From Oscillospiraceae bacterium (GTDB taxonomy: Bacteria; Bacillota; Clostridia; Oscillospirales; Ruminococcaceae), in contig WRCY01000004.1 in the NCBI GenBank assembly GCA_009783695.1, positions 8 through 64,007 of the forward strand: a stretch of DNA of 64,000 bases, in the 5' to 3' direction. The notes under the pieces were generated by a model. It was not told where the DNA came from, did no database searches, and saw only the letters and a list, made by a program, of their open reading frames with translations. Within the stretch, counting starts at the first letter, position 1, and the number at the start of each line of letters is the position of its first letter. Positions 58,725 to 59,036 of this stretch are shown piece by piece. A program made the translations under genes and the position numbers.

Positions 58725-58753
58725 TTGACATATCCATACTACTATGCTATAAT
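58725..58753 (+). promoter_or_regulatory. Consensus extended -10 promoter (candidate antitoxin sRNA promoter)
   Basis: TTGACA (58725-58730), 17-nt spacer, TGcTATAAT (-10 hexamer at 58748-58753). Confidence 0.75.
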
Positions 58754-58759
58754 TTAATT

Positions 58760-58840
58760 GAAAAGGCAGACCTAAGCGGTTGGCTAAGAGAAAAGATTAT
58801 TGAAAAACAACCTTACCTTTTGCCGGGGCGGTTGTTTTTC
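58760..58840 (+). ncRNA. Candidate antisense sRNA of about 80 nt (type I antitoxin)
   Basis: Bounded by the consensus promoter and the hairpin aaaaacaacc...ggttgttttt (58803-58839). Overlaps the 3' end of the convergent small toxin-like ORF by about 28 nt. Confidence 0.45.
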
Positions 58841-58899
58841 ACTTCTATGACAATCTGCAAAACTACAAACAAAGTAAGTAAATTTACTATCATTTCCAT
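58813..58899 (-). CDS. 28-aa hydrophobic peptide (candidate type I toxin; not in the ORF track)
   Basis: Hand translation: MEMIVNLLTLFVVLQIVIEVKNNRPGKR. Strong SD aaggaggtagtgctcATG. An upstream anti-SD (tttccttttc) is present. Confidence 0.55.
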   Translation of the reverse strand: MEMIVNLLTLFVVLQIVIEVKNNRPGKR

Positions 58900-59006
58900 G
58901 AGCACTACCTCCTTTCCTTAGAAGTATGCGAGAAAAGGAAACTCAGCCAACCGCCTATTTTAACCGTTATAGTTATGGTCTGCCTGCGGTATCCACCGCA
59001 TTTTTC

Positions 59007-59036
59007 ATTATAACATATACTGTAATATTTTGTCAA
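59007..59036 (-). promoter_or_regulatory. Near-consensus promoter for the toxin-like mRNA
   Basis: Minus strand: TTGACA (59036-59031), 18-nt spacer, TATAAT (59012-59007). Confidence 0.65.

Follow-up and report, generated by a model that had tools for sequence, protein, structure and literature searches.

A probable bsrG/SR4-like type I toxin-antitoxin module upstream of recJ in a termite-gut Oscillospiraceae genome

Does the stretch of approximately 310 bases (58725-59036) upstream of recJ in an uncultured termite-gut Oscillospiraceae genome encode a small toxin together with the antisense RNA that controls it? A preliminary description of the 64-kb window (the whole stretch of DNA that was analysed) had proposed that it does, on the basis of two convergent promoters, a toxin-like open reading frame (ORF) of 28 amino acids on the minus strand, an anti-Shine-Dalgarno (anti-SD) sequence near the Shine-Dalgarno (SD) sequence, a hairpin shared by the two RNAs and a complementarity between the 5' and 3' ends of the toxin mRNA, and had likened the arrangement to txpA/RatA and bsrG/SR4. 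The present analysis supports this interpretation, and the stretch probably represents a type I toxin-antitoxin module of the chromosome with the architecture of bsrG/SR4. When both strands are read, the promoters, hairpins, anti-SD, SD, ORF and inverted repeats that had been claimed are all present, as listed in Table 1. The two promoters of the module, each with a 12/12 consensus match, are the only 12/12 matches in a promoter scan of 2 kb.

Table 1. Coordinates of the elements of the candidate module and of the adjoining terminator in the window (untranslated region, UTR; small RNA, sRNA)
Feature	Position	Strand	Description
Toxin promoter	59007-59036	minus	TTGACA 59036-59031, 18-nt spacer, TATAAT 59012-59007; 12/12, TG upstream of the -10
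Predicted toxin mRNA start	near 59001-58999	minus	
5' hairpin of the predicted toxin mRNA	58984-58999	minus	UGCGGUGGAUACCGCA; terminator-like when read on the plus strand
P1 outer 5' arm	58977-58985	minus	AGGCAGACC; partner 58764-58772
P1 inner 5' arm	58942-58957	minus	UAGGCGGUUGGCUGAG; contains the family-conserved GGCGGUU core
Anti-SD	58932-58941	minus	UUUCCUUUUC; 14 nt ahead of the SD
SD	58908-58917	minus	GGAAAGGAGG; 8 nt ahead of the ATG
Toxin-like ORF, 28 amino acids and stop	58813-58899	minus	ATG at 58899, TAA 58815-58813; predicted peptide MEMIVNLLTLFVVLQIVIEVKNNRPGKR
P1 3' arms in the predicted toxin mRNA 3' UTR	58764-58788	minus	CUUAGCCAACCGCUUA and GGUCUGCCU; the plus-strand reading is the sRNA 5' domain
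Antitoxin sRNA promoter	58725-58753	plus	TTGACA 58725-58730, 17-nt spacer, extended -10 TGcTATAAT; 12/12
Predicted antitoxin sRNA, ~80 nt	58760-58842	plus	predicted start near 58760
Two-way hairpin	58801-58841	both	arms 58801-58812 and 58830-58841; 12-bp stem, 100% complementary; 17-nt loop
Terminator with U-run, GC-rich hairpin	59039-59062	plus	GCGGGCUCACGCCCGC; separates the toxin promoter from the recJ promoter (59079-59107)

A small hydrophobic ORF that has a promoter and a ribosome-binding site of its own, as is expected of a type I system, is thus found on the minus strand, and its frame is kept in relatives. The frame is intact in 6/6 subfamily sequences (the window and five relatives), and the sole difference in ORF length is an in-frame insertion of three codons. 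Pairwise ratios of nonsynonymous to synonymous substitution rates (dN/dS) lie between 0 and 0.48 in this subfamily, in a test in which the final five codons, being set by the search pattern, carry no weight. The replacements that occur interchange V, I, L, M, F and Y, hydrophobic for hydrophobic, and the ORFs of the window and of the loci L070 and L188 differ by two synonymous changes and zero changes in the peptide. These patterns of substitution indicate that the ORF is under purifying selection. Conservation of the ORF in related copies had been named beforehand as a refuting test, and the ORF is conserved in the subfamily.

The complementarity between the two ends of the toxin mRNA takes the form of a long-range helix, P1. 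Its outer arms (58764-58772 and 58977-58985) are complementary at 9/9 positions, and its inner arms (58773-58788 and 58942-58957) at 14/16 positions on the plus strand and 16/16 on the minus strand, because the two A·C mismatches of the plus strand turn into G·U pairs there; a full helix can thus form in the toxin-sense RNA alone. The minus-strand RNA from 59001 to 58755 folds at -90.9 kcal/mol, compared with -58.0 ± 4.8 kcal/mol for shuffled sequences (z = -6.9, 0/200 as good), and the minimum-free-energy fold of the window mRNA pairs the 5' end with the 3' end, which closes the entire molecule. Among the relatives, cognate 5' and 3' regions pair at -59.6 kcal/mol and non-cognate regions at -43.7 kcal/mol, but these energies took in both promoters, whose hexamers complement each other. 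When the calculation was redone on the transcribed arms alone, the outer helix gave -19.4 kcal/mol for cognate and -9.7 kcal/mol for non-cognate arms.

Although the sequence of the outer arm varies between loci, its true partner is found in the top 5 of 88 candidates for 72/89 loci. For the inner helix, 81.5% of cells are paired in an ungapped alignment of 81 loci, with registers picked by maximal pairing among a few anchor options, versus 72.6 ± 0.6 in shuffles; 144 cells are compensatory versus 61 ± 6 (0/500 shuffles as high), and pairing falls to 32-48% of cells when the 3' partner is slid by 1-3 columns. The duplex of the toxin strand is more stable than that of the opposite strand in 88/97 loci. 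At the core position k=+1 (the pair 58954/58776 in the window), G·U is present in 63/93 loci, where the other strand would have A·C, and a second pair is G·U in 44/93 loci. P1 therefore covaries and forms on the toxin strand. The wide retention of these wobble pairs hints at specific recognition or a breathing site rather than a mere stem. Since P1 forms in the toxin mRNA, this mRNA must pass through the two-way hairpin and extend to approximately 58760.

The anti-SD pairs with the SD in the consensus fold of six subfamily members, in which two pairs are altered on both sides, and thus in a compensatory manner. The predicted probability of the SD being unpaired is 0.04 in the window mRNA, and the family median is 0.07. 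In many loci (L088, L100 and many of those from Acutalibacteraceae), the 5' UTR contains in order an SD-like GGGAGGG, the anti-SD CCCUCUC and the SD GAGGGGG, a set that would permit two alternative hairpins and possibly a translational switch; the window copy does not have this set. The hairpin that had been described at the 5' end of the mRNA is present in the window but is not family-wide. It is common to the window and L070/L188 only, L021 carries a different hairpin at its 5' end, and a comparison of the relatives finds none in L023, L048 or L064, which indicates that such a hairpin is not a feature of the family.

On the plus strand, an antisense RNA gene that is encoded in cis and overlaps the toxin mRNA is recognizable at the level of the sequence, by its promoter and terminator. 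The best opposite-strand promoter downstream of the hairpin was scored in 97 loci, and it reaches 12/12 in 52/97 loci and at least 10/12 in 88/97, with a maximum of 8/12 in shuffled controls. The spacing is nearly constant, most loci having a predicted start 38-50 nt away from the hairpin. The toxin-side promoter scores 8-12/12 at the equivalent place in 88/97 loci and varies more; in most loci, the antisense promoter equals or exceeds it in consensus match. A toxin promoter more variable than the antitoxin promoter is the usual asymmetry of type I systems.

The two-way hairpin, with an A-run and a T-run at the sides of its stem, was recovered at 12/12 by a repeat finder, as were both pairs of inverted repeats, and it recurs in about 100 loci among the matches listed. 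On the plus strand it corresponds to the sRNA terminator, and on the minus strand it corresponds to the stem-loop SL3 of bsrG, containing the final codons and the stop. The TAA of the window sits in the hairpin loop, beside the 3' arm; that of most relatives is located in the 5' arm. A covariance model of the sRNA, trained on 56 family members including the window itself, scores the window copy at 49 bits (E = 1.4e-6). A search for paralogues had been suggested as a check, and blastn, tblastn and the sRNA covariance model with filters off detect no second copy in the 64-kb window, with related copies residing in other contigs and genomes.

A mechanism may be proposed for the window that is modelled on bsrG/SR4 and txpA/RatA as regards the two transcripts and where they end, the route of binding, the nuclease and the toxicity. 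The minus-strand consensus promoter would direct the synthesis of a toxin mRNA of ~240 nt, the 5' end of which would pair with its own 3' UTR via P1 (9 + 16 bp). Within the closed mRNA, the upstream anti-SD would mask the SD and the region of the start codon would be paired as well, so that the mRNA would be stable but poorly translated. The encoded peptide is predicted to consist of 28 amino acids forming one hydrophobic helix with a basic tail. From the extended -10 promoter on the plus strand, an sRNA of ~80 nt would be transcribed and would end at the two-way hairpin; it would be fully complementary to the last ~80 nt of the mRNA, which comprise the 3' strand of P1 and the hairpin with the final codons and the stop. 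The first contact would be made loop to loop at the hairpins and would spread into the 3' strand of P1, displacing the mRNA's own 5' end. The SD would remain masked, and the long duplex would be cut (by RNase III in the Bacillus systems). Upon loss of the sRNA, the mRNA would accumulate, the membrane peptide would be made and growth would stop.

A comparison with known systems reveals that bsrG/SR4 (B. subtilis prophage SPβ, RF01412) is the apt model, as the preliminary description had suggested. Structure probing of bsrG mRNA shows a helix P1 formed by nucleotides 1-35 and 232-262, a short stem that contains the SD, and a stop codon situated in the 5' part of SL3 (PMC3834814). The initial contact is between the terminator loop of SR4 and the SL3 loop, after which the 5' strand of P1 becomes single-stranded and the SD stem lengthens (PMC3834814). 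The proposal that the sRNA and the 5' end of the mRNA would compete for the 3' end of that mRNA describes what was measured for SR4/bsrG (PMC3834814). The lysine codons of bsrG and its stop are situated, in the sequence of SPβ, just ahead of a hairpin that is the SR4 terminator, with its U-run, on the other strand. The window shares with bsrG/SR4 the convergent genes with overlapping 3' ends, the 5'-3' helix P1 that closes the toxin mRNA, the SD in a short stem, the stop in a hairpin that serves as the antitoxin terminator on the opposite strand, and an antitoxin that pairs with the 3' strand of P1. It differs in that the sRNA is ~80 nt and not 180 nt in length, with a promoter that abuts P1, that a separate toxin terminator after P1 is absent, that the hairpin is bordered on both sides by an A-run and a U-run, and that the peptide has no similarity to that of bsrG. 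The RF01412 BsrG model yields no match in the window up to E = 10, and thus none at its gathering threshold of 55 bits. The same model gives a sub-threshold score of 16 bits on a typical family member (L151), on the right strand and at the right place, and 210 bits on the SPβ control.

TxpA/RatA and SprG/SprF likewise combine a small hydrophobic toxin with an antisense RNA over the toxin 3' end. The TxpA family and the "holin-like toxins" form one group, members of which have been noted in Clostridiales (Fozo et al., PMC2887945). Four peptides from loci with the same scaffold pass the Pfam model Hol_Tox (PF16935), with 28-39 bits at a cut-off of 23.3 bits; they weakly resemble PepG1 (NCBIfam) and ComI and are 46-50% identical to staphylococcal holin-like toxins, and one such peptide is named "putative holin-like toxin" by NCBI. 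The window peptide does not match Hol_Tox at that cut-off and differs from the TxpA family. Whereas most ORFs of the family have 20-35 codons and end in ...KK-TAA, the stop lying within the hairpin's 5' arm (AAAAAAUAACCGCCC), in the branch of the window CAA replaces the usual TAA and the other frame is used, so that the peptide continues past the usual stop into the loop and ends in KNNRPGKR. By its RNA layout and not by a peptide model, the window locus may therefore be placed in the TxpA/BsrG-like type I class as a divergent member. It is very probably a module of the bsrG/txpA kind and no new kind of system.

The par locus (fst RNA I / RNA II) of Enterococcus faecalis pAD1 also has two convergent RNAs with a common two-way terminator, and a toxin mRNA with its 5' end tucked in a helix and its SD masked. 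However, in par it is through direct repeats that the antitoxin's 5' part complements the translation start region of the toxin, whereas the repeats in the window are inverted and the 5' part of the sRNA resembles the 5' arm of the mRNA in the same sense. The defining arrangement of par is thus not present, and the window peptide gives no Fst-type match. In hok/sok and aapA1/IsoA1 of Gram-negative bacteria, long-distance pairing between the 5' and 3' ends similarly keeps the full-length toxin mRNA inert. Unlike in the window, the antisense RNA of these systems acts at the 5' region and activation occurs by 3' or 5' processing; their peptides and host lineages are unrelated, and the analogy is one of mechanism only.

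The module is not confined to this genome. Several metagenome contigs are 80-95% identical to the window over the ORF and the hairpin with unrelated flanks, so the community contains multiple copies of the module. A DNA pattern built on the hairpin retrieves five close and two distant relatives from termite-gut metagenomes, the close relatives keeping a similar kind of peptide (e.g. MEMIVTLLTLFVILQIVIEMKNNRPS), and a near-identical module is present in the Oscillospiraceae metagenome-assembled genome (MAG) Emb289P3bin72 (L188). With a looser pattern and one genome per species, at least 119 loci were matched, about 100 of which have the full layout. Among the matches listed, the carriers are nearly all Clostridia (Oscillospiraceae, Acutalibacteraceae, Ruminococcus and Lachnospiraceae), including cultured Oribacterium strains (Lachnospiraceae), and some are Negativicutes, namely a MAG of Selenomonas bovis and the cultured Pectinatus brassicae. 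The RNA family is absent from Rfam, in which the window locus has chance-level matches only. Searches of plasmid and phage sequences with the module (blastn) return short chance matches only, and a degenerate pattern of the N-terminal codons yields six chance matches in viral contigs, none of which has an SD or an ORF.

Many copies of the module stand in tandem, as is typical of type I loci. The sRNA model finds five copies ~300 nt apart in L084 (250-1427), three or four tandem matches in several other loci, and two tandem copies in Selenomonas bovis (L098), with arrays also in L127, L112, L091 and L150. The scaffold does not always carry the same kind of peptide. In L076, L124, L137, L138, L147, L149, L157 and L162, a different peptide of 33-34 amino acids is encoded (e.g. 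MRIELILFLLGLLDEGYIEVVRVTKDKIFLTIKK), which is hydrophobic at the N-terminus and charged and strand-like at the C-terminus, and which matches no family model.

Evidence at the RNA level comes from homologues. Two rumen metatranscriptomes each contain one contig that is 100% identical to the Oribacterium homologue (L151:2340-2508 and 2340-2498), with nothing found in the sequence directly beside it, which gives a weak indication that this homologue is transcribed. Contigs of mouse-gut RNA for the homologue L130 are read-sized and of low depth and also span the sequence upstream of the predicted start, and they are uninformative on the ends.

Several observations weigh against the assignment as a bsrG/SR4-like module. 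The RNA contigs for the homologues are of low depth and unstranded and could include DNA. The stretch itself is present solely in termite-gut metagenome runs in a run search; no RNA run contains it, and both transcripts of this copy are therefore predicted ones. The window peptide matches no toxin model in Pfam, NCBIfam, PHROG or PADLOC, and a 30-amino-acid version with a GTG start is listed in public collections solely as "hypothetical protein"; the toxicity of the peptide is predicted solely from the layout and the relatives. As to the RNA structure, the choice of registers by maximal pairing bears on the pair counts for P1, and in the nearest relative one P1 pair is changed to A·C and is uncompensated. 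Additionally, because the A-run and the U-run flank the two-way hairpin, it is terminator-like in the toxin direction too, and some toxin transcripts may stop before the 3' arm of P1. In that case, a short toxin form without this arm may coexist with the long form.

The lack of a toxin-model match for the peptide, a putative toxin, would also suit a small membrane protein with a non-toxic cellular role, with an antisense RNA tuning its level. Among the peptides encoded on this scaffold, some, such as the 33-34-amino-acid group, are not plain hydrophobic helices, and Fozo et al. found some candidates of this sort (YhzE-2) to be non-toxic (PMC2887945). However, the layered repression typical of known toxins is seen here, with the SD masked, the 5' end locked and the antisense promoter close to consensus, the modules occur in tandem arrays and varied contexts, and sister loci encode Hol_Tox (TxpA-family) peptides, and a non-toxic role is considered rather unlikely. 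It is very improbable that the locus produces two non-coding regulatory RNAs with an untranslated ORF, directed at targets elsewhere or at the neighbours recJ and ORF120 (a predicted gene downstream of the toxin-like ORF). Frame and start codon are retained, as is an SD at 7-9 nt, dN/dS stays below 1, the insertion is in frame and nearly all members have an ORF of 20-35 codons that ends at the same place of the hairpin, even though the RNA core (GGCGGUUAGCC plus the hairpin) is better conserved across the family than the peptide.

The order of a short ORF, a hairpin with a U-run and a next gene on the same strand recalls a leader-peptide attenuator, which would control the downstream co-directional ORF120 (58679-58317). 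In the closest relative, L188, the module is present without ORF120 and the left flank differs, the family occurs in many contexts and in tandem arrays, and the conserved convergent promoter and helix P1 would be left unexplained; an attenuator is extremely improbable. A miniature mobile element, with inverted repeats acting at the DNA level, would account for a multi-copy, dispersed, AT-rich island with inverted repeats near its ends. The arms, however, tolerate differences of the G·U type on one strand only and covary, which argues for pairing of RNA; they are internal to the two promoters, with a selected ORF between them, and target-site duplications, exact empty sites and a matching transposase were not seen. 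This explanation is scarcely credible, and both the attenuator and the mobile element were rejected on context and covariation.

For the type I toxin-antitoxin module, there is the possibility, advanced here only tentatively and rather doubtful, that the RNA scaffold and not the peptide is the conserved unit, which carries interchangeable small ORFs. The scaffold would consist of the P1 core (GGCGGUUAGCC / GGCUAACCGUC) with its near-fixed G·U pairs and of the two-way terminator with its built-in lysine-lysine-stop. The interchangeable ORFs would be the Hol_Tox-like, the MEY...SIKK and the amphipathic 34-amino-acid types and the frame-shifted KNNRP branch of the window. Copies within a genome share the core, and therefore each sRNA could pair with every paralogous toxin mRNA, so that the copies could form a cross-regulated network. 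If true, this would mean a genome-wide network instead of isolated pairs, and gut Clostridia would harbour type I systems frequently rather than rarely. According to a review from 2019, most Clostridia had yielded no homologues of known type I toxins (PMC6563280).

The locus adds an unannotated toxin-like gene and a predicted sRNA gene to the genome of an uncultured termite-gut member of the Oscillospiraceae, and belongs to a family of modules that occurs in abundance in Clostridia of the gut and rumen and is present in some Negativicutes, with only partial annotation at the peptide level. A covariance model of the family would allow the module to be annotated in metagenomes. The finding opens no new class of mechanism, and the family provides a natural series of compensatory variants for the P1 lock and the antisense mimicry first seen in bsrG/SR4.

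As for the surroundings, an AT-rich island (58250-59150, with a GC content of 0.30-0.37 compared with ~0.48-0.59 around it) spans the module and ORF120, which suggests that the segment may have been acquired separately from its neighbours. ORF120 is a predicted gene of 120 amino acids on the minus strand (58317-58679), directly downstream of the toxin gene and without a clear SD; it has no match in Pfam, PHROGs or PADLOC. The 64-kb window contains a single Rfam or tRNA feature, a tRNA-Leu(CAG) at 46289-46373.

In L188, the module precedes recJ as it does in the window, and the other flank is different, with ORF120 absent. The module is 95% identical between the two (58721-59065 in the window and 4883-5148 in L188), whereas recJ (59066-61200 and 5172-7255) is 77% identical, a difference that fits constraint on both strands or a recent exchange between copies and is in keeping with type I loci. 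The terminator situated between the toxin promoter and the recJ promoter would halt antisense read-through and thereby shield recJ, and an equivalent hairpin adjoins the toxin -35 in L070 and L021.

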